Virus record (IMG/VR): IMGVR_UViG_3300049828_000286
Reading direction: 5' to 3' (one strand)
DNA: 20,000 nucleotides
DNA from: an uncultured virus (IMG/VR IMGVR_UViG_3300049828_000286)
Taxonomy: Duplodnaviria; Heunggongvirae; Uroviricota; Caudoviricetes
The stretch's first letter is position 1; the number at the start of each line of letters is the position of its first letter. Of the stretch, positions 1,338 to 20,000 are shown piece after piece. The notes under the pieces were generated by a model, which made no database searches, had not been told where the DNA came from, and saw only the letters and a list, made by a program, of their open reading frames with translations. The position numbers and the translations under genes are program-made.

Positions 1338-1338
1338 C

Positions 1339-4633: not shown

Positions 4634-4652
4634 ACCATGGAGCTTAATGCGA

Positions 4653-5671: not shown

Positions 5672-5859
5672 AGCCCTAATGGCCTCTGTACCAGTTGATC
5701 ATTGTTCACACTCCTGAGAACGAACGACTGCTTGATCCCGAGGTCAGGCTGGTCCTTGACGATACGTTCTGCTGAGGGCCTGTCACCACAGCAGGCCACG
5801 AATCGGCCATCGCTGTCTGTGATAACAAACATGACATCATTAGCCCTGATGCGTGTCAC
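5668..5859 (-). CDS. small hypothetical protein
   Basis: GTGA/ATGA overlaps on both sides. Confidence 0.6.
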   Translation of the reverse strand: MTRIRANDVMFVITDSDGRFVACCGDRPSAERIVKDQPDLGIKQSFVLRSVNNDQLVQRPLGL

Positions 5860-6290: not shown

Positions 6291-6304
6291 ATTAGAACGC
6301 CAGG

Positions 6305-6739: not shown

Positions 6740-6913
6740 CTAGGCGACCTTCCGGTTGAGACGGCTGAAAGCCTTCCGCTGCTGGCGGGTCGCCTTCTTG
6801 CCGTTGAGGCCGAAGTGGGCCTGAATGGCCGCGTGTCGTTCCAGGCACTTCTTGCCCCAGGACGATCCGTTCATGCCGGGGAACTCGCTCTTCTTGATGC
6901 TGCGAACGCTCAT
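6740..6913 (-). CDS. small basic hypothetical protein
   Basis: AGGAG RBS before MSVRSIKK. Confidence 0.65.
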   Translation of the reverse strand: MSVRSIKKSEFPGMNGSSWGKKCLERHAAIQAHFGLNGKKATRQQRKAFSRLNRKVA

Positions 6914-6953
6914 AGTGGTATTACTCCTGTATTGTGTGTATTTCTCGTGAACA

Positions 6954-6975
6954 TCAGATCGGCACACTGTGCCGG
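6954..6975. repeat. palindromic element copy 1 (GGCACA-C-TGTGCC)
   Basis: TCAGATCGGCACACTGTGCCGG directly after the stop of 6976-7353. Confidence 0.75.
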
Positions 6976-7353
6976 TTAGTAGAGGTATCCGTGATACTCC
7001 TCGTCAGCGATGGTATGACCGTTATCCCTGGCCCACTGCTTTGCCGCAGAGATGCCAGCATCCTTGTAGGCATTGTTCCACTCTGCGCCGTCCGAGGAAA
7101 TCAACGCACGGTCGTTCTGGTAGCTGCCACTGGTTACCTCGATGTCAACTAACTCGCCGACTGTAGCCGCCATGGCATCCAGCTTAGCCCTCACATCAGC
7201 AGGTATACCGGTATCGACCCAAGCACCCTCACGACCCTTACGGCCTGGTGTTTTGTTGTCAGTGATCCACGCGTAGTGGCCCTCATTGACCAGGGACACG
7301 ATCTCATCACCCTGGCCACGTAGCACAACCATGTGTAGCTTCATTCTGCGCAT
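6976..7353 (-). CDS. hypothetical protein
   Basis: 125 aa ORF in gene train. Confidence 0.7.
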   Translation of the reverse strand: MRRMKLHMVVLRGQGDEIVSLVNEGHYAWITDNKTPGRKGREGAWVDTGIPADVRAKLDAMAATVGELVDIEVTSGSYQNDRALISSDGAEWNNAYKDAGISAAKQWARDNGHTIADEEYHGYLY

Positions 7354-7356
7354 CTC

Positions 7357-7647
7357 CTAGACGGGCTTCTTCAGCTTGACGCCGGCCTTGTTGAGCGCGT
7401 GACCAACAGCTTTCCGCTGGGCCGGATTCAACTTCACGAACAGCCGCTTCACAGCGACCAATCGTCCAACAGCCTTGTCTGGATTGTCCCCAGCACTCAG
7501 CTCAGACATGCCAGACACAAACAGGTCAGGGCGGTCCACTGGGTACATCTTGACAGTGGTCGTCACTGGGACCTCGACGCCATTGCGATTGCCGTACTCG
7601 TACACGAAGGACAGTCCGTATGTTCCAGTTTCCAATTCGATCTTCAT
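7357..7647 (-). CDS. conserved phage hypothetical protein (G..ELSAGD..DKAVGR..A..R pattern)
   Basis: AAGGAG RBS; pattern recalled from phage proteins. Confidence 0.7.
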   Translation of the reverse strand: MKIELETGTYGLSFVYEYGNRNGVEVPVTTTVKMYPVDRPDLFVSGMSELSAGDNPDKAVGRLVAVKRLFVKLNPAQRKAVGHALNKAGVKLKKPV

Positions 7648-7662
7648 GGTTGACTCCTTGAG

Positions 7663-7687
7663 ATGTCAGACTGGCACAGTGTGCCGG
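7663..7687. repeat. palindromic element copy 2 (GGCACA-G-TGTGCC)
   Basis: ATGTCAGACTGGCACAGTGTGCCGG, identical to 15048-15072. Confidence 0.8.
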
Positions 7688-7688
7688 T

Positions 7689-7754
7689 TTACGACAGCTT
7701 GACCACGTCTACTGGCATCTCTGCCAGCTTCTCGATCAGCTCCTTGACCGTCAT
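7689..7754 (-). pseudogene. 21-codon remnant MTVKELIEKLAEMPVDVVKLS
   Basis: GGAGG RBS; N-terminus typical of longer phage MTVKELIEKL proteins, but stops 1 nt before the palindromic element. Confidence 0.5.
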
Positions 7755-8011
7755 TAGTCCTCCGTCAGGCCGGTCGCTATCTCGTGCGGAAAACCGATCC
7801 GCATGTAGTCCCTATAGTTCGCGAGTTCAGGGCGGCCATGTGCAACCACGAAACCGACCCAGATGGACTGCCAGACTTCCTCGTCCCACGCCGTCCCATC
7901 GTACTCGTCTGGATTGGCCTCAGCGATGGCGCAGTCGGCCGCTGCTCGGTCGCATATGTCGACCTTCCAGAGCTGCTCAATCTCCTTGTCAGTCATAGCC
8001 TCCGTCCTCAT
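7754..8011 (-). CDS. hypothetical protein ending EIATGLTED
   Basis: Coupled ORF. Confidence 0.65.
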   Translation of the reverse strand: MRTEAMTDKEIEQLWKVDICDRAAADCAIAEANPDEYDGTAWDEEVWQSIWVGFVVAHGRPELANYRDYMRIGFPHEIATGLTED

Positions 8012-8385
8012 CCCATGAGTCCCTTTGCGATCTTGTACTTTGCCACGATGTTCAGCGGGTCAGCGACGACCTGGTTACCTGGGTACTCAATCAGCGACTG
8101 CATCGTCTCGCCATGCTGGAGAATACTATCCAGGGCATCACCACGGTACTTGTTCGTGGCGACGGCCAGGTGTGGCCGCACAATCAGTTCACCTACCACG
8201 AACGTATGGGTGAGCTGGCCGCCAAACAGCATATCACTGCTGGTAGATGCGCCAGCGATTGCTACGCCCTTCTCGCGATGGTTTAAGACGACCATCCAGG
8301 CCGGCACTCTGACCGCCGCGTGGCCATAGAGCATCTTGTGCATGGGACCGCCGTACAGCTCGTCCATCAGGTCCTCTTTGGTCAC
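8008..8385 (-). CDS. hypothetical protein ending KIAKGLMG
   Basis: Coupled ORF. Confidence 0.65.
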   Translation of the reverse strand: MTKEDLMDELYGGPMHKMLYGHAAVRVPAWMVVLNHREKGVAIAGASTSSDMLFGGQLTHTFVVGELIVRPHLAVATNKYRGDALDSILQHGETMQSLIEYPGNQVVADPLNIVAKYKIAKGLMG

Positions 8386-8672
8386 CGGCCTGCTCCGAAT
8401 GCCTCAGCAATCAGCCACCGATCAAGCTTGGCAAGGATCCACTTCTGAAGGCGCTTGCCATTTCTGCCTGGAAGGATAGTTGGCTTTTCCTTTGTGCCGT
8501 ATGTCCAGTAGTTTGGGAGCCTAATACTCGTGTTGCCGTCTCCGTCTTGCACGATGGAGATACCAGGCAGCGACATGTCAATCATGGGCCCTTCATGGAA
8601 GTGCAGCGTGGCAGTAATAGGCGCACCGTGGTAGTTTCTCGTTCTGCTGAACGATACAGTGAGGCTAGGTAT
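8382..8672 (-). CDS. divergent SpoVG-like protein (paralog 3; start uncertain, possibly ATA)
   Basis: ATLHFHEGPMIDMSLPGISIVQ...SIRLP...LQKWIL aligns with AEIWFEKGTLDGLKLRGISIWK (737) and AELHFSAGLLTGSKLVGFAVYR (8665). Confidence 0.55.
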   Translation of the reverse strand: MPSLTVSFSRTRNYHGAPITATLHFHEGPMIDMSLPGISIVQDGDGNTSIRLPNYWTYGTKEKPTILPGRNGKRLQKWILAKLDRWLIAEAFGAGR

Positions 8673-8988
8673 TTCCTGGTCCAGTAAGACCTTCTGCGAT
8701 GAGCCACGCCTTGTACTGCCAGATGATGCAGTCACGGATGCGCTCCATGGATTCGCCGTCATCGCCAGGACGAAGCAGCGCAAACGACCTACGCTCCCCC
8801 ATGACTGAGTACGTCCGAGCAGGAAAGGTCACTGACAGTTCGCCATTTTGACGCCGGTAGACGGCAAAGCCTACCAGCTTCGAACCTGTCAGGAGGCCAG
8901 CGCTAAAGTGCAGCTCTGCGTCGGCCAGTTTCACAGATGACGAACTGCTACCAGTATCATCAGATCGTATGAACTTAACGGCTGTCAT
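8665..8988 (-). CDS. SpoVG-like protein (paralog 2)
   Basis: KLADAELHF...KLVGFAVYRR...VTFPARTYSVMGERRSFALLRP...IRDCII. Confidence 0.75.
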   Translation of the reverse strand: MTAVKFIRSDDTGSSSSSVKLADAELHFSAGLLTGSKLVGFAVYRRQNGELSVTFPARTYSVMGERRSFALLRPGDDGESMERIRDCIIWQYKAWLIAEGLTGPGNT

Positions 8989-9160
8989 CGCTGTACTCTT
9001 GCCAGCAATTCACCCACTCATCGTCAGTGGGGTCGAGGATCAGGCTGTCGGCGCTGTACTTCACGAACTCGCGTTCGCCAGAGTGTACCGACTCCAGGAT
9101 CACGCCCTCTCCTTCATCACTCACGACCACGTACTGTCGGTTCTTGAAGACGGCTTTCAT
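8975..9160 (-). CDS. small hypothetical protein (LILDPTDDEW)
   Basis: GGAG RBS; coupled. Confidence 0.65.
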   Translation of the reverse strand: MKAVFKNRQYVVVSDEGEGVILESVHSGEREFVKYSADSLILDPTDDEWVNCWQEYSDDSR

Positions 9161-9321
9161 CCATCCACTCCCGCCTCGAGATCATCCAGGCGATCTGCCA
9201 ATTGCTGAATCACTTCGACCAGCGTGGCATAGAGAACATCTTGATCCATCTCACGACGCCAGCTGTCTATCAGCATTTGCATCGACTTAATGGCATCGTC
9301 ATCAGGTTCAGTGTCTGACAT
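9157..9321 (-). CDS. 54 aa acidic helical protein MSDTEPDDDAIKSMQ...
   Basis: Own translation; AAGGAG RBS; ATGA overlap with next gene. Confidence 0.6.
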   Translation of the reverse strand: MSDTEPDDDAIKSMQMLIDSWRREMDQDVLYATLVEVIQQLADRLDDLEAGVDG

Positions 9322-9330
9322 CAACGCTCC

Positions 9331-9594
9331 TTAACAGTAGGGACCGTGTGGCTTGAGTGCCATCTTTTCAGGGTGCTCAGCGTCCAGGACATCCTGTAGC
9401 AACCTGGCCCGGTAGACAAACCTGGCTCTGTCATTCTGGCCATCTTCCAGCAGGTCACTCTCGAGAATCTTGAGGGCCTGGAGCGGTTGATGTGCCAACG
9501 TGATCAGATTGTCCTCGTGCTGCAGCTTGTTCGCCTGGTATTCCTTGTCAGGAATGGCCAGGTACTGCGCGGACACAACGGCCAGTTCGCTCAT
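9331..9594 (-). CDS. hypothetical protein
   Basis: Start MSELAVV overlaps upstream stop. Confidence 0.65.
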   Translation of the reverse strand: MSELAVVSAQYLAIPDKEYQANKLQHEDNLITLAHQPLQALKILESDLLEDGQNDRARFVYRARLLQDVLDAEHPEKMALKPHGPYC

Positions 9595-9908
9595 GATATC
9601 GCCACTCCAAATGGCACTTCTTCCACGCGGTACTCTGTTTCGCCGTAATGGTAACTCACGCCAGTATCGTAGGGATTGGCGGCGACATACTTGTCTACGG
9701 CCATCCAGTCTGGGTCGTCGTCGTCTGGCTTGTTGTCCATGTACTCCTGACACTTGTCTCGATAGGCCATGGCCGGTTCGTGTGCGCCGAATGCCATTAC
9801 GACCCATTCCGTCTTATCTGAGTAGTTGCCTTGCTTACCGATGACTACATAGATCTTGCCAACGATAGACGCTGCGACAAGCTCCTTTGCCATGATGTCA
9901 GCGGTCAT
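9591..9908 (-). CDS. hypothetical protein, tandem paralog A1
   Basis: Similar along its length to 9905-10222. Confidence 0.75.
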   Translation of the reverse strand: MTADIMAKELVAASIVGKIYVVIGKQGNYSDKTEWVVMAFGAHEPAMAYRDKCQEYMDNKPDDDDPDWMAVDKYVAANPYDTGVSYHYGETEYRVEEVPFGVAIS

Positions 9909-10222
9909 ATGTCTTTTGCCAGGATAACCTCTTCGACCCAGAACAAATTGGCCGTTTCGCCAGGGTCATGCGGATTCTGCTGAAGGTACTTCATTCTGGC
10001 TAATATGCCGCTACCCGTATGATCGTCGCCTCTCACTGGACACGCTGACGCGTATGTCTGTGCCGCGACAGCCATGCGTTCAGCATCGTCCTTGTTGGCA
10101 AATGCCACGATTGGGCGCTCGTTGTTATATTCGTGAGGACTTTCCTCGCAGGCCCTGACCACATACATCTTGCCAAGGATGGCCATAGCCACGAGCGACT
10201 TCGACAGCTCGTTATCAGCCAC
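9905..10222 (-). CDS. hypothetical protein, tandem paralog A2
   Basis: LVA..I.GK.YVV, AF, Y...NP.D.G, VEEV shared with 9591-9908. Confidence 0.75.
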   Translation of the reverse strand: MADNELSKSLVAMAILGKMYVVRACEESPHEYNNERPIVAFANKDDAERMAVAAQTYASACPVRGDDHTGSGILARMKYLQQNPHDPGETANLFWVEEVILAKDI

Positions 10223-10526
10223 AGCGCACGTTGTACTTGGTCCGCAGATCGTTCGCGATCTTCGTCGCTTCTGCCCTCAGTGCCGCAGCGATAGCCTGCT
10301 GGATACCAGGCGTCTCCTCAGCACGAATGCTATTGGTGCTGAAATTGCTTGGCCTTCCAACGGCCTCCAAGTATGGCATATTGGCCACAGTCAGGAAGTC
10401 CTTGCGCCGCTTGAGCAGTGCATTGATGTCCGCGATGTCCTTCTCTGTTAGTTCTTTCAACCCAGCAGCCGCACACTTTGTCGGAGTACAGAGCTGGCCC
10501 CAACTTCCACACTGGCAGATCCACAT
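10215..10526 (-). CDS. hypothetical protein with N-terminal Cys cluster (WICQCG...C...C)
   Basis: AGGAG RBS. Confidence 0.65.
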   Translation of the reverse strand: MWICQCGSWGQLCTPTKCAAAGLKELTEKDIADINALLKRRKDFLTVANMPYLEAVGRPSNFSTNSIRAEETPGIQQAIAAALRAEATKIANDLRTKYNVRCG

Positions 10527-10535
10527 CGTGTTCTC

Positions 10536-11006
10536 CTAGCCGAAGATCAGTTCGCCAAAGATGGCCATCTGCAGGATGCAGTCATAGCCGTTGGCATCGA
10601 TGTCCCACTCGCCTTCACCGATGTACGAGTACTCTGAAAGTTGGCCGTTCTTGGTCACAAGGGTAGCCAGGCCAGCTGCGAAGTGTTCCTGCGTGACCTC
10701 GACGACAGGAGCCCTCATGGGGTCCATGCCATTGAAGCCCTTCCATCCAACAACCGGAAGCTTCAACTTGGCAGCTGATTCCTGCTGTGCTATTGGCAAT
10801 CCAGGGTCGTTGTCGTCACTGAAGCCCTGAATGCTGTACTCGCCTTCCTCGTCTGTGACGGCCACGAGGATAGCTAGTACATGGCCTCTATCGTCTCGCT
10901 TGGTACCGACCCGAGCGAACCAGCTATAGCTGGCATCCGTCGATCCGTCCAGATGGATCGCGATGTCATCAAACGGCACCGTGATAGGGACGAGATGCTT
11001 GGTCAT
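10536..11006 (-). CDS. conserved phage protein (C-terminal DIDA...D.ILQ.AIFGELIFG)
   Basis: C-terminal signature recalled from phage/MGE proteins; AAGGA RBS before MTKHLV. Confidence 0.75.
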   Translation of the reverse strand: MTKHLVPITVPFDDIAIHLDGSTDASYSWFARVGTKRDDRGHVLAILVAVTDEEGEYSIQGFSDDNDPGLPIAQQESAAKLKLPVVGWKGFNGMDPMRAPVVEVTQEHFAAGLATLVTKNGQLSEYSYIGEGEWDIDANGYDCILQMAIFGELIFG

Positions 11007-11152
11007 CAGATATCCTTTACCGTGAACGTGCCAGCCGCCATCCCTGACATCAGTCGGACCAGGCCGAGCATCTGCCAGTGATTGAGGTCTGTCGTGACGA
11101 GTAGCGTGCGTACTTCTCCACTGGCCTGTACCCACGTGATTTCGTATGTCAT
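11006..11152 (-). CDS. 48 aa protein MTYEITWVQASGEVRT...
   Basis: Own translation; TGATG overlap with next gene. Confidence 0.55.
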   Translation of the reverse strand: MTYEITWVQASGEVRTLLVTTDLNHWQMLGLVRLMSGMAAGTFTVKDI

Positions 11153-11174
11153 CGTACCATTGCTTTCTGTGTAC

Positions 11175-11405
11175 CTATCGACACAGTGCGGCGGCGATTA
11201 GCTCGGCCTCTGTCACAATGTCCAGGCGTTCGTTGTCCGTGAGAGGCGACAGGCTAGCGGCGATACTGTCAGCCGTGGCTTTGTCCATCAGCCTCGCTCG
11301 GTAGTCGCCATAAATGTCGCCGTTATCGCCATAGTATATGTAGCAACCGGCCAATGCCCTTCTACGCAACCTGTCCATGTACGACAACCTGACCGCGTAT
11401 CTCAC
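11175..11405 (-). CDS. hypothetical protein, tandem paralog B1 (ends EAELIAAALCR)
   Basis: Similar layout to 11402-11614 and 11611-11853. Confidence 0.65.
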   Translation of the reverse strand: MRYAVRLSYMDRLRRRALAGCYIYYGDNGDIYGDYRARLMDKATADSIAASLSPLTDNERLDIVTEAELIAAALCR

Positions 11406-11614
11406 TTGGCCAACTGTTCTGCGATGAACTCACGTTCGCTAAGCACTCTCACTCTGTATTGGCAGCGCCAGTACTCAGCACACAGGTTCGCTTGATCAAG
11501 TGGCATGTAGTTTGGTTCATATGTCATTTGCCACCAACTGCCAACCCAGTGCCTTCCGTACCAGACTGGACGAATCATCCCGTCTGATACCCTTATCTCA
11601 ACTAGCCATCTCAT
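11402..11614 (-). CDS. hypothetical protein, tandem paralog B2 (ends LSEREFIAEQLAK)
   Basis: 3' 30 nt nearly identical to those of 11611-11853. Confidence 0.7.
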   Translation of the reverse strand: MRWLVEIRVSDGMIRPVWYGRHWVGSWWQMTYEPNYMPLDQANLCAEYWRCQYRVRVLSEREFIAEQLAK

Positions 11615-11853
11615 TTGGCCAACTGTTCTGCGATGAACTCCTTCTCGCTGAGGATGCTGACATGACTGTTCGGCTTGGTTTGCCAGTAGGACTCGACCTT
11701 CCAGGCAGAATCAAGGTCCATGAACCAGGCCTTGTCGTCATACCAGCAAAACGATGTACCAGGCTTGATGTAGCCGTAGTACACCCTGATGGTCTTGCGT
11801 GCTGATCTGATGTCATACAGACCAGACTCGATCTGGACCACGTACCGGCTCAT
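11611..11853 (-). CDS. hypothetical protein, tandem paralog B3 (ends LSEKEFIAEQLAK)
   Basis: Coupled ORF with paralogous C-terminus. Confidence 0.7.
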   Translation of the reverse strand: MSRYVVQIESGLYDIRSARKTIRVYYGYIKPGTSFCWYDDKAWFMDLDSAWKVESYWQTKPNSHVSILSEKEFIAEQLAK

Positions 11854-12374
11854 GACAGGTTATGCCCCTTGACCAGTTTATCGATCTCGAGCTGGGCCTC
11901 ATCGTGCTCCTGCTCGGTGATCTTCTTACTCAGGAACAAGACGAGCAGCTTGATGCGGGCCTTGAGGATATCCTTCCTTGCCCACTTATCCTCGAGTTCC
12001 TGATCGTACTGTTCTCGACCACGCCATACGACCTCGGTTATTGGCACACCGTTGTCTTTGGCGAACTGTCGCATCTGCTCAGTCTTACCTTGACTGGCTG
12101 GACATTCCGGCGCGGGCTGGTCAGGCTCAGGCTTGAAGTCATGACGAGACATCATAGCTGTAAGGTCGTCGCGGAAGTGCTGAACTTTGGCCACACTGAC
12201 AGCCGCGAGCTCGTTAATCAAGGACTTGAGCTCACATTTGATGTGGTGTTTGCCTGACTGCATGTAGCAACTTGGACAGCATTTATGGCCGTTGCCATTC
12301 CTGCCAGACCATTCCAGCCGCGACAGCATCTCGTGACATCTGGACAGGAGATCATCGGTGTACGTCAGGCTCAT
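11850..12374 (-). CDS. hypothetical protein with CPSC...H..C putative zinc site
   Basis: LEWSG...CCPSC...HHIKC; AAGGAG RBS. Confidence 0.7.
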   Translation of the reverse strand: MSLTYTDDLLSRCHEMLSRLEWSGRNGNGHKCCPSCYMQSGKHHIKCELKSLINELAAVSVAKVQHFRDDLTAMMSRHDFKPEPDQPAPECPASQGKTEQMRQFAKDNGVPITEVVWRGREQYDQELEDKWARKDILKARIKLLVLFLSKKITEQEHDEAQLEIDKLVKGHNLS

Positions 12375-12586
12375 TGCCACTCCTTTGCCAGTTCAGCGAA
12401 CATCGCTGGCAACTTGGCATCCTCGTAGAACGGGCACATTGGGCCGGTTGCATCGAAGCACAGTTTGTCTGCGATCAGCGGGTCGACGTCGAACAAGGTG
12501 TTCACGTAGGCCTGGCCTGGGCGTTGACCCTTGGCCATCTTGTCGCCCGACTCTCGGTGCAGTCTTTGCCACTTGTCGGCTACCAC
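12371..12586 (-). CDS. conserved phage hypothetical protein (QRPGQAYVN.L...PFY.D)
   Basis: Recalled phage motif; GTG start after AAGGA. Confidence 0.65.
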   Translation of the reverse strand: MVADKWQRLHRESGDKMAKGQRPGQAYVNTLFDVDPLIADKLCFDATGPMCPFYEDAKLPAMFAELAKEWQ

Positions 12587-12771
12587 AGCCTGTCCTTTCC
12601 TGCGAAGAACCGCACGGACAGCGCGATCATTAGAATCCAGCTGCCTAGAAGCAGCGCGATCAGCCCTGCCAGGAGCTGGCCACGTTCCATCGCATCCACC
12701 GCCAGCACGACCACGCCATACAGAATGCACATGCATCCTGAGTATGTCAAGCCGTAAAATATTGGCCTCAT
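12580..12771 (-). CDS. small membrane protein, two predicted TM helices
   Basis: Two long hydrophobic stretches. Confidence 0.65.
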   Translation of the reverse strand: MRPIFYGLTYSGCMCILYGVVVLAVDAMERGQLLAGLIALLLGSWILMIALSVRFFAGKDRLW

Positions 12772-13082
12772 GACAGCTCTTCGACGTCGAACGTGACAGG
12801 CAACAGCGACCTGATCTGGTCAAAGTTCGGAGTGCTGTTGTTCATCTGCCGGTCGAACAGAGTGATCAGATCCGCCGCCTTCTGTGGCAGCTGGACCTCG
12901 ACAGTGTGGCCGTTCTCATTTCGCCATGCTTTGGCAAAGCCCACGCTGTGCGCTTTGCCAGTGTTGGCGTTGAGCGCAACGGCCAAGAGGCACGTGTTGC
13001 ATACGGAATGCCTGTCGTAGCCAGCGATGGCGGCGTCCAGGTGTTTACTGGTGACGGTGATAGTGGTCGTGTGTTCGTCCAT
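12768..13082 (-). CDS. hypothetical protein (C..C.LA.AL)
   Basis: Start MDEHTT downstream of a sigma70-like promoter. Confidence 0.7.
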   Translation of the reverse strand: MDEHTTTITVTSKHLDAAIAGYDRHSVCNTCLLAVALNANTGKAHSVGFAKAWRNENGHTVEVQLPQKAADLITLFDRQMNNSTPNFDQIRSLLPVTFDVEELS

Positions 13083-13101
13083 ATCGGTCTCTCTGTTGCC
13101 C

Positions 13102-13130
13102 ATCATGCACATGTTTCCTGTGCCTGTCAA
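13102..13130 (-). promoter_or_regulatory. sigma70-like promoter TTGACA-17-CATGAT
   Basis: Perfect -35, 17-bp spacer, intergenic. Confidence 0.65.
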
Positions 13131-13136
13131 GGGCAG

Positions 13137-13430
13137 TTATTGGGTGATTTCCAGAAGCAACTCGCCCACGCCGCCCCTGGCCCAGTCGCTTCTGGACCCG
13201 TCAGGCTGGACGAGCACGACAACCGGCTGCACACCATGGCCGTCGTAGAAGGAGGCACTCTTGGAGATGGCGAATCGCCGGCCAGGAAAGGCACGCAGGC
13301 CGAACTCTCCGGGAAAGTTGGCAATGGCGGCTCTGACTTCGCTGTACTGGCCAGTGCCCTCACACTCCGTGCAGACACCTTGGCCACGATGGCCACCTTC
13401 TCCGTTACAGGCAGGGCAAGTAGGAATCAC
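13137..13430 (-). CDS. protein with DnaJ-type CxxCxGxG zinc-finger repeats
   Basis: CPACNGEG and CTECEGTG. Confidence 0.7.
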   Translation of the reverse strand: MIPTCPACNGEGGHRGQGVCTECEGTGQYSEVRAAIANFPGEFGLRAFPGRRFAISKSASFYDGHGVQPVVVLVQPDGSRSDWARGGVGELLLEITQ

Positions 13431-13618
13431 TGCTGTGCCACCAATCGGCCGTTCAGGAAGCCCCAGGTTCGGCCAGTTTTGACCAACTGACTCGCGACCA
13501 GTTCACCCACTGGCGTCTTGAGCACCGGCACCATGACCACCTTGTGCAGGCGGTTGTCCAGGTTGGCCTCGACGTTGTTGTACTGAATCCACTGGCGGCG
13601 AGTTGCAATGCGCTTCAT
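13427..13618 (-). CDS. small hypothetical protein
   Basis: AAGGAG RBS; internal ELVASQLVK. Confidence 0.65.
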   Translation of the reverse strand: MKRIATRRQWIQYNNVEANLDNRLHKVVMVPVLKTPVGELVASQLVKTGRTWGFLNGRLVAQQ

Positions 13619-13668
13619 GTCACGCTCTCCTTGGCCAGCAAGCCATCGTCAGGCTCCGATTAGCTGGC

Positions 13669-13719
13669 GTTACGGAACAATTCCCAAGCTGCCCGGTGAC
13701 AGCCTGGGATTTCGGCAAC
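13669..13719 (-). other. long intergenic RNA hairpin (possible RNase III processing site)
   Basis: TCCCAGGCTG/CAGCTTGGGA inner stem plus outer stem; G-U pairs valid on the minus strand; no U-tract. Confidence 0.5.
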
Positions 13720-13904
13720 TAGGCCGAGACCGGCTCGCTGAAGAAGTCGACCCGCTTGATGCTGGGCAGGCTGAGCCGGAGGTTCTTCTGAACCTTCAGC
13801 ATGACGTCCGAGCTGTTCCGCAGGCGGCGGAACACGTTCTCCTTACGGCCATCCTGGTAGGTGACGACGAACTTGACGACGATGGTGTTGGGAATGGTGC
13901 TCAT
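13719..13904 (-). CDS. small basic hypothetical protein
   Basis: AAGGAG RBS. Confidence 0.7.
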   Translation of the reverse strand: MSTIPNTIVVKFVVTYQDGRKENVFRRLRNSSDVMLKVQKNLRLSLPSIKRVDFFSEPVSA

Positions 13905-13940
13905 GATACGTATGCTCCTTGTGTACGGGTGGACGTGAGA

Positions 13941-14147
13941 CTACTTGACCGCGACGACGTAGCCGTTCTTGACTTCGACGCTGGCGTACCAGCTGTGAGG
14001 GGCCGGGTAGTGTGGACCTTCCACTGATTCACGGCCATTCTGGTTGCAGGCGAAAGGGCCAGGAGAGAAGATGCTGACGATCTTGCCAGCGGCCACGGCG
14101 TCCTTGAGGGCCTTCTTGGTCTTGAAGTTGGGGCTGACGTAGGCCAT
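13941..14147 (-). CDS. conserved phage protein (NFKTKKALK...VEGPHYP.PH.WYA)
   Basis: Recalled phage family; GAGG RBS before MAYVSP. Confidence 0.75.
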   Translation of the reverse strand: MAYVSPNFKTKKALKDAVAAGKIVSIFSPGPFACNQNGRESVEGPHYPAPHSWYASVEVKNGYVVAVK

Positions 14148-14157
14148 GTGTGCCTCT

Positions 14158-14448
14158 CTACTCGTAATGCGGTCTCTCTGATGGGAACGTCGCGGCCGGA
14201 TGATCCTGGACGTAGATCTCGAGGTTGTCCTCGCCGAGGACACTGAAGCGAGTCCGGTTGTTCTCGTAGGCGGGACCGAAGATGGCCTTCAACTTCTCCT
14301 TGGCCGCCTTGATTTCGTCCTTGTTGTCCTCGACCAGGATGGAACCGAGTGGCCGGCCGAAGTCATACCACCAGCCGCCTTCTTCAGGGCCACCGTAGGC
14401 CCGGTTGACCTCGTAGGCGTTGACGTGCTTGTACTTGTCAGTGGACAT
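14158..14448 (-). CDS. conserved phage protein (YGGPEEGGWWY motif)
   Basis: Recalled motif; AAGGAG RBS. Confidence 0.78.
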   Translation of the reverse strand: MSTDKYKHVNAYEVNRAYGGPEEGGWWYDFGRPLGSILVEDNKDEIKAAKEKLKAIFGPAYENNRTRFSVLGEDNLEIYVQDHPAATFPSERPHYE

Positions 14449-14456
14449 GCTGCTCC

Positions 14457-14768
14457 TTACCAGTGATTCTCTGGGTAGAACTCTTCGCCCAGGTAGGGCG
14501 AGTGGTGGTAGATGACGTCGTTCTCTGTCAGCGTGACGGCTCGCATCGGCTGGTCGTCATACCAGCCGGCCTCTTCCTCCATCAGCTCGAGGAAGTCCTG
14601 GTACTCGTTGTCGACCTCCTGATCGACTTCGCCCTGCGTTTCGCGCTTCAGTTCCCGCCTCTCGGCCTTAACGCGACCCTTCTTGAAGATCGCGTTTGTC
14701 TTGGCCGTGTTCCTGGAAACGAGACGGGAGTTGTACGAGTGCTCCCAGTGCTTGTAGATGCCCTTCAT
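14457..14768 (-). CDS. hypothetical protein, basic N-half and acidic C-half
   Basis: AGGAG RBS; coupled. Confidence 0.7.
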   Translation of the reverse strand: MKGIYKHWEHSYNSRLVSRNTAKTNAIFKKGRVKAERRELKRETQGEVDQEVDNEYQDFLELMEEEAGWYDDQPMRAVTLTENDVIYHHSPYLGEEFYPENHW

Positions 14769-14932
14769 GCTCGCTGGTTCTCCTGGTTCGCTGGGTAGAT
14801 GTCGCCACCATGCTTCTTGGCGAGTTCACTGGCCAGTTCGTACTGGTAGGCATTGGCCACCTTCTCCAGGCCAAACCCGTGACTTCCCAGATACTGACCA
14901 GACTTGACGACGTAATACAGTTGGACCTTCAT
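14765..14932 (-). CDS. small hypothetical protein
   Basis: Start MKVQLY after GGA. Confidence 0.6.
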   Translation of the reverse strand: MKVQLYYVVKSGQYLGSHGFGLEKVANAYQYELASELAKKHGGDIYPANQENQRA

Positions 14933-15047
14933 GTCAGTCCATGTCCCAGAGTGGCTTCGTGGTGCGGAGATGCGTTGCCACTTTCTGAGCCACAGAGACA
15001 GGCTCAACTGGCTTGTTCGTTGGTTCCGTGTTCTTGTCCATTGCAGA

Positions 15048-15072
15048 ATGTCAGACTGGCACAGTGTGCCGG
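15048..15072. repeat. palindromic element copy 3 (GGCACA-G-TGTGCC)
   Basis: Directly after the TAG of 15073-15246; 25 bp identical to copy 2. Confidence 0.8.
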
Positions 15073-15246
15073 CTACTCGACGATGTACATGTGGCCGTAG
15101 TTGTCGATGAACCAGATGCCATCGATGAACTTGACTGAGTTCGCCGCCAACATCAGAAACGCCACGCCACGCCAGGTCGGCTTGACATGAGTTGACTTCT
15201 TGCTGTGCAGGTCCACCGACGTCAGTTCACAACGGTTGCTGCCCAT
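15073..15246 (-). CDS. 57 aa protein MGSNRCELTSVDLH...
   Basis: Own translation; AGGAG RBS. Confidence 0.65.
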   Translation of the reverse strand: MGSNRCELTSVDLHSKKSTHVKPTWRGVAFLMLAANSVKFIDGIWFIDNYGHMYIVE

Positions 15247-15273
15247 AGCTCTCTTCTCCTAGAGTGGCGGTAT

Positions 15274-15327
15274 GCAACTCCATAAGGCACATAAACGGCG
15301 TGGCCGGTTATATGCCCTAGCAATCGC
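15274..15327 (-). other. long intergenic RNA hairpin (possible RNase III processing site)
   Basis: TAGGGCATATAACCGG/CCGTTTATGTGCCTTA gives 15 of 16 pairs with G-U on the minus strand, extended by an outer stem. Confidence 0.55.
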
Positions 15328-15746
15328 TACAGCCCGACTGCGACCATCACCGAGTTGATGGTTTCCAGCGACTCCTTCAAGCCGCAGTCTGTGAAGTCTC
15401 GAACCGCCTTGATGGCTTCGATCTTGTTGCCCTTGACCAGGCTGGCATGAATGGCCGAGGCTTCGAACTCACTGAACGGGGAGCAGCACCACCTGCTCTG
15501 ACTGTTCAGGGCCTTCCTGACGGCCTCTGTCGTGAGCAGTGGCTTGCTGGCAGTGGCCAGCTTGTCCCGTAGCAGCTTGCAGTTGATCTTGCGATCCGCC
15601 GCCGTGTTGACCAGTGCGGTCATCAAGGAGCTGCCGTTGTTCTGGTAGTCCAGGATGAACTCGTTGGACTGGTTCTGCTCGTACGCCAGCAGCTGCTCCA
15701 ACAGCTCACGCTGTGGGCAAGTGATGGTGATGGTGATGTCCTTCAT
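15327..15746 (-). CDS. protein with C-terminal ribosomal L7/L12-CTD-like domain
   Basis: GNKIEAIKAVRDFTDCGLKESLETI resembles the L7/L12 KIxVIKxVRxxTGLGLKEAK motif; AAAGG RBS before MKDITI. Confidence 0.7.
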   Translation of the reverse strand: MKDITITITCPQRELLEQLLAYEQNQSNEFILDYQNNGSSLMTALVNTAADRKINCKLLRDKLATASKPLLTTEAVRKALNSQSRWCCSPFSEFEASAIHASLVKGNKIEAIKAVRDFTDCGLKESLETINSVMVAVGL

Positions 15747-15798
15747 AACTGCCTTTCTTGCGCATAGCCGTTTACGCGCAATTATTTCCCTCATTCTT

Positions 15799-15829
15799 GC
15801 GCTTAGGCGGAATTGCCTGATCGCAGTTT
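15799..15829. promoter_or_regulatory. bipartite motif copy 1, GCGCTTARGCGG-N9-ATCGCAGTTT
   Basis: Repeated at 16389-16419 with identical spacing. Confidence 0.55.
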
Positions 15830-15832
15830 TAA

Positions 15833-16345
15833 GGGGGTGCCGCAATGGGCCTCTCTCTGCCTACTGGGCTTGGAACCAGTAGTGCCCATTCCAGAGTGGC
15901 CAGCTAGCCTCTCAGTCGCTAGCCAGCCATTCTGTCCTCTGTGTTACTGAGAGAGGTCTCTTCCTAGCAGGCACCTTAGCTGCTAGAGTCGTGCCTTTTA
16001 CCGTCTGCGGCTGGTAAGCCTACCCGTGATTACTCAGCTGCTCATAACAGCTTTGCGGCCGATGTGGCCTATCCGGGGTCATGGCCAAGTGTCAGATTGG
16101 GTCAGCTGTATCAAGCTGGCCGTCTACCAGGGCTCGCCCTTTGGTCGGGTTACTGCGGTACGGTCGGACCTTAGACTTCCACGGTTATGTCTAACCGAGT
16201 CACTCAGGTCCTTGCTAACGAAACGGCGCTTATAGGGAGTCGCTATAAGGCCAGTTTCTGTACTGTGGCTCGGAATGGCTAGGCCCATTCCTCAAGCGCC
16301 ACAATATAGGGGGCAGTCGATAGCAGTTACACTACCCCCCACTCA
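15833..16345. ncRNA. candidate large structured non-coding RNA
   Basis: No credible ORF; 10 or more consecutive or nested stems. Confidence 0.45.
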
Positions 16346-16388
16346 GCAGTTAGGCACACTTCCCCCCTCCGATTTTTCCCCATGCCCC

Positions 16389-16419
16389 GCGCTTAAGCGG
16401 CCTGGAGGAATCGCAGTTT
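16389..16419. promoter_or_regulatory. bipartite motif copy 2
   Basis: GCGCTTAAGCGG-cctggagga-ATCGCAGTTT at the compositional boundary. Confidence 0.55.
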
Positions 16420-16969
16420 AGGAAGTAGGCCCATTGCCTACTCAGGCAGATCGGCTGGCCTGTCCTGCTGGCCTGTCCTGCCGTCCTGCCTGTCTTTGGC
16501 TGATCCCGTCCTTAGTCCGTTTTGGGACTACCAGCCCGCCAGCCTGCCTGCTGCTGACCTGCCAGCCGTCCATTCTGACGACTGCTCGGGATCTGCCTAT
16601 ACGTGAGTCTGCCTGTAGTGGCTGCCTGTAGCATCTACTCTGCTGCCAGCCTGCCTGCTGCTGCTATCGCAGATCGAGCCTACCGATCCGCCAGCCTGCC
16701 TGCTGCTGCTGTAGATGTCTGCCTGCCTGCCGTCCTGCCAGCCGTCCTGCTGCCTGCTGCTGGCTGTCCGGGCTGCTTAGTGACTCCACTAAACGATCCG
16801 GGCTGCCTGCCTGCCTGCTGCCTGTCCTGCTGGCCTACTGGCCTGCTCTGGCCTGTCTGCTGCTGTCCTGCCTGCCTTCCTGGCTGTCCTGCCTAGCCTG
16901 CCAGCCGTTCGGGCTGTAAGGCACAGTATTTGAACGGCTGCCAGCCGTCCTGCTGTGGCCTACAACAGC

Positions 16970-17012
16970 AAAAGGCAGGCAAGCAAACCCTGTCGGGCTG
17001 CCTGCCTGCCTT
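16970..17012 (-). terminator. intrinsic terminator after 17040-17396
   Basis: AAGGCAGGCAGGCA...TGCTTGCCTGCCTT stem running into TTTT on the minus strand. Confidence 0.6.
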
Positions 17013-17039
17013 AGTGGCCTATTTGGCCTGTCCTGCTGC

Positions 17040-17396
17040 CTAGAATCGGCTGGTGTCGATCACGGCTGCCTGCTTGGCTGGCCTGCTCGGCTGCTTGCTT
17101 GCACGGAAGGTGTCGTAGGCCTGCCGATCCATGATCAGGCCAGACTTGCATCGCGCCAATTCGCCTGCCTCAATCGCCGAATTGAGCAGTGACAGCCCGT
17201 CGGCGCTGAACTTCGATCCGAGGTACGTGACCGGGCTGATCTTGACTTCCCTGCCATCGGCGCGGCGGGCTGTCAGGAAGGGATAGGTCGCCCAAAGTGG
17301 CCTGATCCCGTTGAATCCCGATGCTGTGATAATGCGTCGGATCGTATCCGCTACGATCTTCGGGCTGGCTGCCTGCTGCTGCTGCTTCTTTGCCAT
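17040..17396 (-). CDS. hypothetical early protein
   Basis: AGGAG RBS, own promoter and terminator; globular-looking core. Confidence 0.75.
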   Translation of the reverse strand: MAKKQQQQAASPKIVADTIRRIITASGFNGIRPLWATYPFLTARRADGREVKISPVTYLGSKFSADGLSLLNSAIEAGELARCKSGLIMDRQAYDTFRASKQPSRPAKQAAVIDTSRF

Positions 17397-17535
17397 TGTG
17401 CCTTTTTCTCCTACCTTCCGGGCTGCCTGCTGGATTGCAAGATCAGCCCGGATACACTTCCGCCGTTAGACAGCCCGGAAACCTCACGGGCCAGCCAAAC
17501 CGACAGAAACATCAAAAGAACGAACCTCAATCACG

Positions 17536-17580
17536 ATCCTTGATCAGCCCGGACACACTGTCAACGTGTTTTTTGTGTGT
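17536..17580 (-). promoter_or_regulatory. sigma70-like promoter: A-tract, TTGACA-17-AAGGAT
   Basis: CACACAAAAAACACGTTGACAGTGTG shared with 19540-19565. Confidence 0.65.
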
Positions 17581-17596
17581 ATCCGGGCTGCCTGCT

Positions 17597-19309
17597 CTAT
17601 CTGGCCTGTCCCGTCCTATGTCCTGTCGCTGCTGGCTGGCGTCGTTTGACTGCTGTCGGGCTGCTGCCGATCCGGCTGTCTAGGCTGTCAACGTAGGCCT
17701 GCCGTTCGGCTGCTGCCTGCTCGGCCTGCTCGGCCTGCTCGGCTGTCCTATCTCCAGCCAGCAGATCGATCACATATTCGGCTGACTGCTGCTCCTGCTG
17801 GCTGCCTGTCATGCCGATTAGCCTGCCTTCCGGGATCACTGTCGGATCGGCCTGCCTGCTTTCATACGGTACAGACCACACATCAGACGTTCTGATCTGC
17901 TGACCTTCGATCCGTCTCACGGTAACGTATCGTTCTGCTGCTCGGCTGCTTCCACCTGGGAGAGGGATTCGGCCGGATCGGATTGACTCCTGTATGGCTG
18001 CTGCTGTGGCTGTTCCGATCTTGCCTGCTACCTGTCTGCCATCCTTGGCTGTTTGCAGCATGGCTGCTGCTGTCTGACTGGATACCAGCATCGCAGCCGT
18101 GGCAGGAGCGTATCCGGCTGCCTGCCGTGGCCTGCTCGGCCTGTATCCGTTAGCCTGCTGGCCTGCTGTCGGCTGGCCTGCCTTCCGTAGCGTCGGAGCA
18201 TCGATCACGGCTGCCTTGATCGTCCTGCCGTTTGGCTGGCCTGCTGCTGCCAGCCTGACAGCCTGCCGATCCGTGATCGTCGGATCGGTGACGACAACAG
18301 CCCGCACAATGGCAGCCCGATCCATGATCGCGGGCTGCTTGATCGGCCTATAGGCCTGATGTCGGAATGGCCTGACAGCATCGGCAGAGACACGATCATA
18401 TGGTCCCGATCCGTAGGCTGCCTGCTGCTCTGCCTGCCTGCCTGCCTGCCTGTATTCCCGATCTGCCCTATCCTGTCCGTTACGCTGTCGGGCTGCTGCC
18501 TGCTCGGCCTGCTGCTCGATCTTCGCTGCTGCTGTCTGCTTGCTTGCTAGCAGGTAGGCCAGCCGTCCTGCTGCTGTCCGTTCGGCTGCCAGCCGTTCGG
18601 CCTGCTGCCTGTCCTGCTCGGCCTGCTCGGCTGCCTGCTCGGCCTGCTGCTTGTCCTGCTCTGCCTTCCTGGCTGCCAGCCGAACGGCTGCTGCTGCGAT
18701 CTGCTGCCTGTCCTGCTCGGCCTGCTCGGCTGTCCTGTCCTGTAGCAGGCTGCTGCTTGGCCTGTCCTGCTTGGCCTGCTTGGCTGGCTGGCTGCTCGGC
18801 CTGTAGGCCTGCCCGATCCGAATGGTGCCGATCACGCCGACGGCTGCCAGCCTGCCGATCCATCGTTCGGCCTGCTGTCTGCTGGCTGCCTGCCTGCTGC
18901 TGCTGCTGCCGTGGCTGTAATAATGGACAACAAACCGGATCGGCCTGCTGGCCTGCTCGGCTGCTGTCCGTTCGGCCTGCTGCCTGTCCTGCTCGGCTGC
19001 CTGCTCTGTCCTTGCCTGCTCGGCCTGCTGGCTGGCCTGCTCGATCCGTACCTTCCGGGCTGCCAGCCGTTCGGCCTGCTTGGCCTGCTTGGCTGTCGGC
19101 TGCTGCTCGGCTGCTGCTGCCGTACCTCTGTCCTGCTGCTCGGCCTGCTCGGCTGCCAGCCATCGGCCGATCATGGCTTTTGCTTCCTTGAATGTGCTGC
19201 CAGCATCTACCGCAAGATCGCTGCCCTGCTCGACAATCGCCCAGCAATCCCTTGCGGTACGAACCACGATCCATCTCCCGATCACGTACTCGCCTGCTCT
19301 GACTTTCAT
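17597..19309 (-). CDS. 570 aa Ala/Gln/Arg-rich low-complexity protein
   Basis: 1.7 kb open frame; start MKVRAGEY follows GAAGGCAGGT; AEQ/QDRQQ/ERLAA repeats interspersed with non-repetitive segments. Confidence 0.6.
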   Translation of the reverse strand: MKVRAGEYVIGRWIVVRTARDCWAIVEQGSDLAVDAGSTFKEAKAMIGRWLAAEQAEQQDRGTAAAAEQQPTAKQAKQAERLAARKVRIEQASQQAEQARTEQAAEQDRQQAERTAAEQASRPIRFVVHYYSHGSSSSRQAASRQQAERWIGRLAAVGVIGTIRIGQAYRPSSQPAKQAKQDRPSSSLLQDRTAEQAEQDRQQIAAAAVRLAARKAEQDKQQAEQAAEQAEQDRQQAERLAAERTAAGRLAYLLASKQTAAAKIEQQAEQAAARQRNGQDRADREYRQAGRQAEQQAAYGSGPYDRVSADAVRPFRHQAYRPIKQPAIMDRAAIVRAVVVTDPTITDRQAVRLAAAGQPNGRTIKAAVIDAPTLRKAGQPTAGQQANGYRPSRPRQAAGYAPATAAMLVSSQTAAAMLQTAKDGRQVAGKIGTATAAAIQESIRSGRIPLPGGSSRAAERYVTVRRIEGQQIRTSDVWSVPYESRQADPTVIPEGRLIGMTGSQQEQQSAEYVIDLLAGDRTAEQAEQAEQAAAERQAYVDSLDSRIGSSPTAVKRRQPAATGHRTGQAR

Positions 19310-19313
19310 GCTG

Positions 19314-19466
19314 CTACCTGCCTTCCGGGCTGCTGTCCTGCCGTTTGTCCTGCTGTCCGATGGTAAGCCATTCGAGCCAAGCAAGCATAAGGTCAGCCTG
19401 CTCGGCTGTCGGCTGCCTGCTGCTGCTGTAGATGTCTGCTGCTGCCTGCTGCTGCTGCTGACTCAT
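19314..19466 (-). CDS. 50 aa protein MSQQQQQAAADIYSSSRQPTAEQADLMLAWLEWL...
   Basis: Own translation; GGAAGGT RBS; lies between the promoter and the long ORF. Confidence 0.5.
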   Translation of the reverse strand: MSQQQQQAAADIYSSSRQPTAEQADLMLAWLEWLTIGQQDKRQDSSPEGR

Positions 19467-19520
19467 ACCTTCCCGCCTTCCTCTGCCTGCCTGCTAGGCC
19501 AATCCCTAACAGGTAGGCGC

Positions 19521-19565
19521 AGCCTACCTGTAGGGATTGCACACTGTCAACGTGTTTTTTGTGTG
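19521..19565 (-). promoter_or_regulatory. sigma70-like promoter: A-tract, TTGACA-18-TAGGCT
   Basis: Same 26-bp upstream block as the 17536-17580 promoter. Confidence 0.65.
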
Positions 19566-19903
19566 GCCTGCTCGGCTGCCCTGCTGCTCGGCCTGCTGGC
19601 TGTCCTATATGTCTGCTGTCCTGGGTCGGCTGCCTGCTGTCGCTGGCCTGTCCCTTTGGCTTACCTGCCAGCCGTCAAATGGTCATAAGTCAAAGTGATA
19701 ACAGGTAGGCCGATCATACAAAGTCATCCTAGGATCGGAAAACTCATTAGAGCCACCACGAACGGCAGGCAGGCAAGGGTAAGAGTCGCACTAACCGAAA
19801 GAAACTTTTAGCCGGGCATCCTAGCTCGTTCTAGGCCTATTGTGCTTTTCCTTCGCTTTCGTGCCGTTTTCGCCTGTTTTCCTTGACTTTGTGCGGCAGA
19901 GGC

Positions 19904-19920
19904 AATTGGTCGGACCAATT
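19904..19920. promoter_or_regulatory. GntR/FadR-subfamily (PdhR/LldR-type) operator-like palindrome
   Basis: AATTGGTC-G-GACCAATT fits the PdhR consensus AATTGGTnnnACCAATT. Confidence 0.6.
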
Positions 19921-19930
19921 TCGTGTCAAT

Positions 19931-19977
19931 CCACATAATCTAGTGTGCCTTGCGATGCCGACCACAATATCTAGTAG
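19931..19977. promoter_or_regulatory. tandem NrdR-box-like sites
   Basis: CCACATAATCTAGTGT (19931) and CCACAATATCTAGTAG (19962), 31 bp apart; NrdR consensus acaCwAtATaTwGtg; TTGACA follows at 19978. Confidence 0.6.
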
Positions 19978-20000
19978 TTGACAGTGCCCGACAAGTGTGA

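Follow-up and report, generated by a model that had tools for sequence, protein, structure and literature searches.

A T-poor, few-word and strand-asymmetric 3.2-kb zone beside a contig end of an uncultured phage, possibly a restriction-silent early module

The DNA analyzed here is a 20,000-nt window from the uncultured virus IMGVR_UViG_3300049828_000286 (Caudoviricetes). The window is phage-like, nearly all of its plausible genes lie on the minus strand, and close to its right end it contains a 3.2-kb zone (16430–19680) whose sense strand, the minus strand, is T-poor, strand-asymmetric and composed of few words, with a GC content of 62.1% as against 55.2% in the 16.4 kb that precede it (the left part). 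A flank of ordinary composition (19681–20000) follows as far as the contig end. The borders are abrupt, with the number of CTG per 100-nt bin rising from 0–4 to 9–20 at 16400 and returning to 0–1 at 19700, which is in agreement with the switch near 16420 reported in an earlier reading of the sequence alone (the original prediction). Base frequencies on the + strand of the zone are A 0.119, C 0.341, G 0.280 and T 0.260, compared with A 0.198 in the left part.

The vocabulary of the zone is strongly one-sided. CTG occurs 325 times on the + strand and CAG 53 times; CTGCTG is found 80 times and CAGCAG once (12:10 in the left part), CCTGC 103 times and its reverse complement 4 times, and GCCTGC 76 times and its reverse complement GCAGGC twice. 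Altogether 33 six-mers are present in at least 15 copies, 25 of which have at most two reverse complements, and the fraction of positions whose 6-mer occurs at least three times is 0.63 in the zone versus 0.30–0.36 in four left slices of equal length. Tandem Repeats Finder returned 36 rows with periods varying from 3 to 42, and the zone is therefore scrambled simple sequence and not one array; its commonest 8-mer, with 35 copies, stands among many variants, and AGGA has a density of 12.0 per kb versus 7.2 per kb in the left part. A few motifs are over-used in scrambled order and with no fixed period, as in cryptically simple DNA. These counts uphold the earlier description of a few-word, strand-biased vocabulary that is no fixed-period tandem array and extends over coding and non-coding DNA alike, the untranslated parts sharing the same words. 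The zone is a real and strongly non-random feature.

Three genes occupy the zone, all on the minus strand and all with products that exist as called proteins in a public collection. The first, g50 (19314–19466), encodes 50 residues beginning MSQQQQQAAA, and is followed by g570 (17597–19309), which encodes a 570-aa ORFan (a protein of no assigned family) rich in Q, A, R and E, and by g118 (17040–17396), a 118-aa ORFan that begins MAKKQQQQ. The g570 and g118 starts are preceded by a Shine–Dalgarno-like GGAAGG. The g570 frame is open for 621 codons and exceeds all of the 500 simulations made at each of the Markov orders 1, 2, 3 and 5, in which the longest frames had means of 195–233 codons and a maximum of 606. 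Open reading frames (ORFs) of 200–270 aa on the + strand were rejected as genes, as composition alone gives such lengths. Upstream of g118 and g50 sit two TTGACA-containing boxes that are identical over 26 nt and putatively drive leftward transcription. Box B (19540–19565, in the region 19503–19565) lies ahead of g50, which is the first gene behind it, and is followed by a hairpin or palindrome with 19-bp arms (19503–19542); box A (17554–17579, in the region 17545–17590) carries its minus-strand TTGACA as a loop between the arms of a 14-bp inverted repeat of CAGCCCGGAYACAC, a half-site that recurs as a third copy at 17444–17457. About 30 nt past the g118 stop, a terminator-like hairpin (16962–17012, minus strand) is predicted from its fold, with a 17-pair stem followed by UUUUGCUGUUGU, a U-rich tail; a simple terminator scan did not call it. 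The hairpin lies in N1 (16430–17039, minus strand), an untranslated segment that has the densest CTG words of the zone and stops in all three minus frames (5, 3 and 7). Past the hairpin, some 530 nt remain untranslated with the densest words; A falls to 2% at 16800–16899, and the RNA fold of N1 beats its shuffles (z = −10.3, 20 shuffles). An alternative genetic code for N1 was considered and rejected, since translation table 11 reads the neighboring genes without difficulty and each of the three N1 frames is interrupted by stops.

The window DNA comes from a freshwater sediment metagenome, its gene products are recorded from a single 76,440-bp contig, and parts of it recur in three more freshwater runs, which belong to two other studies. 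Contigs of these runs contain 18953–19256 (X2), 19165–19429 (X3) and 17234–17443 (X4) with 0 differences each, and a further X3 piece (16192–16465) matches the window apart from one 1-nt gap; indels and joints at 85% likeness in X2–X4 belong to deeper, unrelated CTG-rich contigs and were not counted as phage variation. In the source run, a 1033-nt Logan contig spans 18968–20000 and stops exactly at 20000, so that the right end of the window, 320 bp from the zone, is a contig end in two assemblies. All sequencing runs were kept as contigs, from which molecule ends are not readable, and there are no RNA runs among those listed as carrying the DNA. The original prediction had itself raised the possibility of an assembly artefact, which might be suspected in low-complexity DNA, and source-run Logan contigs do break within repeats at 18622, 18732 and 18968. 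However, pieces of the zone recur identically in the three further runs, and a long open frame with a conserved domain outruns every simulation. Since identical pieces occur in runs of two other studies, the zone is not an assembly artefact, an explanation to which we give practically no chance.

To separate pressure on DNA from pressure on protein, the genes were compared with shuffles that keep the protein, the codon family and every dinucleotide (the strict null), both for all zone genes and for a non-repetitive subset of 1047 nt (g570 codons 296–525 and g118). The zone genes contain 12 palindromes of 6 bp versus 28.5 ± 3.7 in the shuffles, 0 of 1000 of which were as low; the depletion persists in the non-repetitive subset (8 versus 17.4 ± 3.0, 1/1000) and is far weaker in the left genes (142 versus 162.3 ± 8.5, 4/300). 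GATC, in turn, is in excess in the zone genes (39 versus 30.0 ± 2.0, 0/1000 as high) and in the subset (26 versus 20.5 ± 1.6, 1/1000 as high), and as expected in the left genes (55 versus 58.3). AGCT is absent from the zone genes (0 versus 3.6, 9/1000) and the subset (0 versus 2.4 ± 1.2), the left genes having 64 versus 59.8, and GCAGGC is over-represented in the zone genes (52 versus 41.5) and the subset (16 versus 11.1 ± 1.5), with 4 versus 4.7 in the left genes. Shuffles that keep protein and codon usage likewise show GCAG, CAGC and GATC to be enriched with z of about +5, the non-repetitive 1047 nt included; for g118 by itself, synonymous shuffles give 3.6 ± 1.2 GATC where 8 are present. 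The untranslated DNA of the zone follows the same trend, with 2 six-bp palindromes versus 15.6 expected, compared with 24 versus 28.4 in gene-poor DNA of the left part. Strand asymmetry does not explain the palindrome loss in the non-repetitive subset, where 5-mers that co-occur with their reverse complement outnumber those of the shuffles (549 versus 482). Furthermore, T is about half as frequent at each codon position of the zone genes (6.9/16.7/9.9% at positions 1/2/3) as in 26 left genes (14.6/25.7/18.8%).

A DNA-level constraint is thus established for the zone, much stronger than in the neighboring 16 kb; under it, palindromes and inverted pairs are removed, and words of the CAG type as well as GATC are favored. 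The pressure falls on the DNA and not on the protein alone, and it is largely the DNA that makes the protein rich in Q, A, R and E, as had been proposed from the vocabulary. The site avoidance suggested at the outset is borne out, and relative to the rest of the window the zone is depleted in restriction targets, as a leading region would be, with GATC (48 sites) and GGCC (51 sites) as exceptions.

The 48 GATC sites counted in the zone agree with the 45–50 estimated by eye in the original prediction, and compare with 9.6 expected from base composition, 10.8 ± 3.2 from an order-1 and 38.1 ± 5.9 from an order-2 Markov model. Because the order-2 model gives 38.1, trinucleotides explain most of the excess, though not all of it, so that the low-order account named beforehand as an alternative holds for the larger part of the sites only. 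CGATC is found 26 times and GATCG 13 times. The densest cluster, 10 sites in about 206 bp (18203–18411), lies within g570; otherwise the sites are spread across the 3.2 kb, mainly as xxG-ATC codon pairs. Among the ATC codons, 21 of 24 are preceded by a codon ending in G (the overall frequency of G at position 3 is 0.38), and Asp before C is coded GAT in eight of eight cases. Only 2 of the 48 sites are part of a palindromic hexamer, versus 12.5 expected (P = 8e-5); all four NGATCN' hexamers are avoided, and CGATCG, GGATCC and AGATCT each have zero occurrences in the zone. The motif GATCCNTGATC, with two GATC 7 bp apart, is present in four copies (+ strand 17126, 17535, 18268 and 18319) versus 0.04 expected, and one copy occupies the expected −10 position of box A.

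The predicted absence of AGCT is confirmed, with 0 sites in the zone versus 24.4 in the order-2 model and 91 sites in the left part; among 103 four-mers with an expectation of at least 8, only AGCT and GTGC are at or below a quarter of expectation, AGCT being the more extreme. CGATCG is indeed missing from the zone (maximal-order Markov expectation 7.0), but it is equally missing from the left 16.4 kb (expectation 5.4), and its avoidance is hence window-wide and not specific to the zone as had been thought. Similarly, TGGCCA is absent from the zone and its excess to the left is real (32 in 1–16429 versus 4.7 by base composition), whereas its absence from the zone, where 0.9–1.8 are expected, is not significant. 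The left-part TGGCCA sites are evenly spaced at about 500 bp; 16 of the 32 fall in minus-strand genes in the reading xTG-GCC-Axx, 7 lie between genes, and the most enriched synonymous-site 4-mers of the left genes are TGGC (z = +6.0) and GCCA (z = +5.1). With this usage, the phage has another DNA dialect besides that of the zone. Synonymous sites, in the left part as well as in the zone, are also short of CCGG and TGCA (left genes: CCGG 25 versus 42.2, TGCA 27 versus 38.5), and the window-wide shortage of CGATCG, CCGG and TGCA points to ordinary, genome-wide restriction avoidance directed at the systems of the host.

The fine structure of the zone reveals how its vocabulary arose. There are 23 dispersed repeat families, with units of 21–57 nt that are common to the coding and non-coding parts, and N1 contains an exact 27-nt piece of the g50 start. 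The cassette CCGGAAGGYAGG is present in six copies, two of which form the ribosome-binding sites of g570 and g118; one other copy stands ahead of the in-frame ATG at 17812, and the rest are read in-frame in g570 (e.g., as AARK) or lie in N1. Dispersed units and reused cassettes are a pattern of slippage and duplication, and simple-sequence amplification in a foreign module is established as the generative process. The sharp borders, the GC shift and a closest relative of high GC also suggest mosaic import of the module. The ATG at 17812 (minus strand, in-frame in g570), with CCGGAAGGCAGG ahead of it at 17822–17833 and MTGSQQEQQ after it, may mark either an internal start, from which some 70 C-terminal residues would be translated, or a past gene fusion.

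Only the N-terminal domain of g570 has relatives. The protein as a whole (20% Ala, 13% Gln and 11% Arg) gave a single-sequence model with a mean pLDDT of 55.6, in which long helices are predicted at residues 73–120, 188–299 and 504–547; the model was poor and for this reason not used in a fold search. The N-terminal domain of about 50 aa (19124–19309, minus strand) is modeled confidently, with a pLDDT of 89.6, as four strands and a helix. A HMMER search of g570 against 1.84 billion representatives returned, besides g570 itself, one 105-aa protein, which matches residues 3–62 (BLASTP identity 46% over 48 residues), and a metagenome scan with the domain produced 262 candidate stretches, five of which encode a relative. 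The relatives (P0002 and L001–L005) define the pattern AGEY...CW.I...DAG.TL..AK.MI..W, with the domain encoded at 145–291 in L001, 1900–2049 in L002 and 7249–7371 in L003. The L001 relative, at 61% identity, starts MTTKTTKTTTTTK, encoded by (ACG)n-type words at gene starts, and lies on a contig with 64% GC and 13% T. L003 is the sole lineage with an annotated context, and there the relative heads an early operon, as a 62-aa first gene beside a divergent helix-turn-helix regulator and followed by Erf, exonuclease and NinB. A milder T-poor stretch begins at the homologue in L001 and L003–L005. In several relatives the domain is flanked by lineage-specific low-complexity sequence, either T/S/K-rich or Q/A/E-rich. 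The domain has no sequence match in Pfam, PHROG or PDB, its profile none in IMG/VR or GTDB genomes, and its model no fold match in the PDB at E ≤ 0.001, the best hits being single propeller blades. No PHROG or Pfam family was assigned to g50, g570 or g118, and the search for relatives of g118 returned only self-hits and none in IMG/VR.

The surroundings are equally isolated. Neither megablast nor blastn found DNA relatives of the window in phage records, tblastn with g570 gave no match, the 26-nt box is absent from IMG/VR and a 30-nt string from the right end of the window is absent from the JGI metagenome collection; near relatives of the window are thus lacking in phage records, IMG/VR and the JGI collection. 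A few window genes match phage families, among them a phosphoesterase (phrog_547, E = 1e-50) and an AAA_33/polynucleotide-kinase-like ATPase, the relatives of which are uninformative about the host. A 229-aa window protein had no match, a 172-aa neighbor protein had no relatives in IMG/VR, the window contains no tRNAs, and the Rfam scan yielded nothing beyond mir-648 at chance level (E = 0.61). About 580 nt (15846–16429, minus strand) that separate the zone from the next gene are ORF-less and, as RNA, fold much better than their shuffles (z = −6.0, 0/100 as stable), with no Rfam match; copies of the motif AAACTGCGAT...CCGCYTAAGCG at 15800–15833 and 16390–16423 bracket this segment, which may act as a regulatory leader or encode a structured non-coding RNA of the phage. 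On the other side of the zone, in the flank of ordinary composition, the perfect palindrome AATTGGTCGGACCAATT (19904–19920), nested in TTGAC...GTCAA, looks by its sequence like an operator.

The zone is probably the first-expressed segment of the phage, kept free of restriction targets. More specifically, we read it as a slippage-built, compositionally foreign early module from which palindromes and inverted word pairs have been cleared, by the same logic as in the first-exposed DNA of T5 and the Autographiviridae, a reading that we put forward tentatively and to which we attach somewhat less than an even chance. The main competitor is a neutral history, in which an imported module of higher GC was amplified by slippage into cryptically simple DNA, tolerated by a coiled-coil or disordered protein, and in which the site patterns follow, without selection, from a one-stranded vocabulary and inherited copies. 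Such a history would account for the sharp compositional borders and the step from 55% to 62% GC, the many short arrays of differing periods and the fragments shared by coding and non-coding DNA; it is in line with the closest relative of the N-terminal domain, whose contig has 64% GC and 13% T and which employs another simple word, (ACG)n, and with the 38 of 48 GATC that an order-2 model yields. It does not, however, predict that the non-repetitive 1047 nt still have 8 palindromes versus 17.4 and 26 GATC versus 20.5 (1/1000 each), nor that reverse-complement-paired 5-mers number 549 versus 482 there, nor that just two of the 103 four-mers are outliers, AGCT more so than the other, and we consider it possible but rather unlikely. 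An RNA-level function, with the DNA patterns being secondary, is improbable to a greater degree. RNase E prefers U, and a U-poor, purine-rich early transcript could be selected for stability, having few RNase E sites, or for host RNA-binding proteins, with CAGGA or (AGC)n acting as a sponge. The sense strand has 11.9% T, untranslated N1 included, AGGA is denser than in the left part (12.0 versus 7.2 per kb), N1 folds at z = −10.3 and the relatives L001 and L003–L005 are T-poor from the homologue onward. Yet palindromic 6-mers are a property of double-stranded DNA, the depletion of which RNA stability does not predict, AGGA in g570 is at its shuffle expectation (20 versus 21.6), and at E ≤ 1 no Rfam family was found save the one chance-level row.

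Two further alternatives assign the function to DNA elements in cis. Clusters of GATC mark E. coli oriC and P1 pac and oriR, and the zone, or its cluster at 18203–18411, could be a target of the Dam/SeqA type, serving methylation-gated packaging, a replication origin or methylation-sensitive early promoters. The excess of GATC beyond protein, codon use and dinucleotides is restricted to the zone genes, 10 sites fall within about 206 bp, and GATCCNTGATC has four copies versus 0.04 expected, one of them at the −10 position of box A. The combination of a GATC cluster with DnaA boxes, iterons or an AT-rich unwinding region that defines the oriC/P1 type was not found, however: DnaA boxes number 11 versus 17.5 expected in the window and zero in the zone, the zone has no AT-rich unwinding stretch, and the sites, largely xxG-ATC codon pairs, extend across the 3.2 kb. 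In addition, family scans revealed no methylase among the window genes, and a headful pac site would not yield a fixed contig end; an element of this kind is improbable. Oriented signals for a translocase or nuclease, i.e., one-stranded words near a DNA end that halt RecBCD-type degradation or direct loading in a Chi-like manner, or else CTG sites for primase (DnaG primase prefers CTG), are highly unlikely, although the extreme orientation bias lies beside the contig end and GCTGG words are on the strand whose 3' end is that contig end. Of five known Chi motifs, which bear on the Chi-like signals of the original prediction, only one AGCGG is found in the zone; there is no dominant 8-mer, the commonest having 35 copies among many variants, and the relative L001 uses other words.

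Comparison with known systems places the zone among several of them. T5-like phages suffer restriction only from sites in the first-step-transfer (FST) region (PMC10644984), Autographiviridae escape Type I systems when the motif is missing from the first-injected region, though present elsewhere (PMC12455610), and T7 has 36 EcoP15I sites in one orientation that go unrestricted because all point one way (PMC3874151). With its inward genes, its untranslated few-word DNA and its position near a contig end, the zone resembles the T5 FST region, which is terminal DNA with inward early genes mostly of unassigned function and large untranslated repeats (PMC10644984; bioRxiv 10.1101/866236). The untranslated FST repeat regions of T5 are rich in inverted repeats, palindromes and DnaA boxes (bioRxiv 10.1101/866236), whereas palindromes are depleted here and DnaA boxes are not enriched in the window and absent from the zone, and there is no sequence or protein similarity to the zone. 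With the leading region of T7-like phages, the zone shares position-dependent avoidance, described there for a motif (PMC12455610); early promoters near the end point inward in those phages, and the two 26-nt boxes are candidates for such promoters here. The zone differs in that the contig has 76.4 kb and not about 40 kb, and in that avoidance is generic, affecting palindromes and inverted pairs through a few-word dialect and not one motif. The CTGCTG:CAGCAG ratio of 80:1 resembles the one-way EcoP15I sites of T7, but the bias is regional here and not genome-wide, and because the left 16.4 kb have a ratio of 12:10, whole-genome immunity of the T7 kind does not hold. In subcluster B3 mycobacteriophages, GATC, a palindromic restriction-site core, is likewise over-used, there at about four times expectation, genome-wide and with GGATCC also over-used (PMC4841201), while the excess here is confined to 3.2 kb, with NGATCN' hexamers avoided and GGATCC at zero.

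The zone has, finally, the features of cryptically simple sequences, which Tautz and co-workers reportedly described in 1986 as scrambled short motifs and attributed to slippage. It shares with them a few motifs interspersed without fixed period across coding and non-coding DNA, and is distinguished by its extreme orientation bias, its place at the head of what would be a phage early operon, its palindrome depletion and its GATC enrichment at synonymous sites; a literature search on cryptic simplicity in phages returned nothing pertinent. The zone is best filed as a combination of known kinds, leading-region restriction avoidance and cryptically simple DNA.

For the restriction-silent early module that we favor, the following course of events can be proposed. 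The zone would be the promoter-proximal module of a leftward early operon, comprising roughly 1 kb of untranslated DNA besides g50, g570 and g118. The T-poor, CAG-type dialect of its sense strand would have originated from short units by slippage and duplication and would be maintained by the DNA-level constraint, with GCAG, CAGC and GATC favored at codon junctions and palindromes and inverted word pairs removed. The earliest DNA would then offer few targets to Type II enzymes, which require palindromes, or Type III enzymes, which require inversely oriented site pairs, and the rest of the genome, with its normal site content, would be covered once the early proteins are made; GATC would be tolerated, or even enriched, presumably as it is harmless or methylated in the host. 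By analogy, restriction silence of the earliest exposed and expressed DNA seems the most likely benefit, though we would not call it probable, and it is favored since a position at the contig end, at the head of an inward operon, fits the first-exposed-DNA precedents. What the data show is the base composition, the signals at synonymous sites, the location at a contig end and the arrangement of genes and boxes; early timing, order of entry and a benefit against restriction are inferred. A stronger version, a dedicated leader of 3.2 kb of genes and spacers written in a one-stranded dialect to be a poor Type II or III substrate of any specificity, with GATC kept as a methylation mark or decoy and the Q/A/R/E protein molded by the DNA, is doubtful.

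Several observations weigh against the favored reading. Boxes A and B were not called by the consensus promoter scan because their −10 regions are weak, and a third GTTGACAGTG box, on the + strand at 19977–19986, faces outward 14 bp from the contig end and would imply, if it is a promoter, that the genome continues beyond that end. The L003 homologue lies 7.2 kb inside its contig, beside the divergent regulator; in the relatives, GATC is not in excess, AGCT is not missing, and T is mildly depleted (T at codon position 3 of 9.9 versus 15.1% in L003) or not depleted at all (L002). The three ORFan proteins show no anti-restriction sign in the family and relative searches, relatives having been sought for g570 and g118, and the sole relative besides the proteins themselves is that of the g570 N-terminal domain. 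Palindrome avoidance is not universal, since GATC and GGCC are abundant, and duplicated copies are non-independent and inflate the shuffle statistics, which the non-repetitive subset answers in part.

If the reading is correct, the zone would represent a generic, composition-level version of position-specific restriction avoidance, in which whole classes of sites are avoided by means of vocabulary and orientation; experiments on T5-like and T7-like phages have demonstrated position-specific avoidance for single motifs. A regional shortage of palindromes at synonymous sites, together with orientation bias, may accordingly serve as an in-silico signature of leading regions and anti-defense genes in uncultured contigs. 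The zone itself is a clear case of a DNA-level constraint that dictates protein composition.

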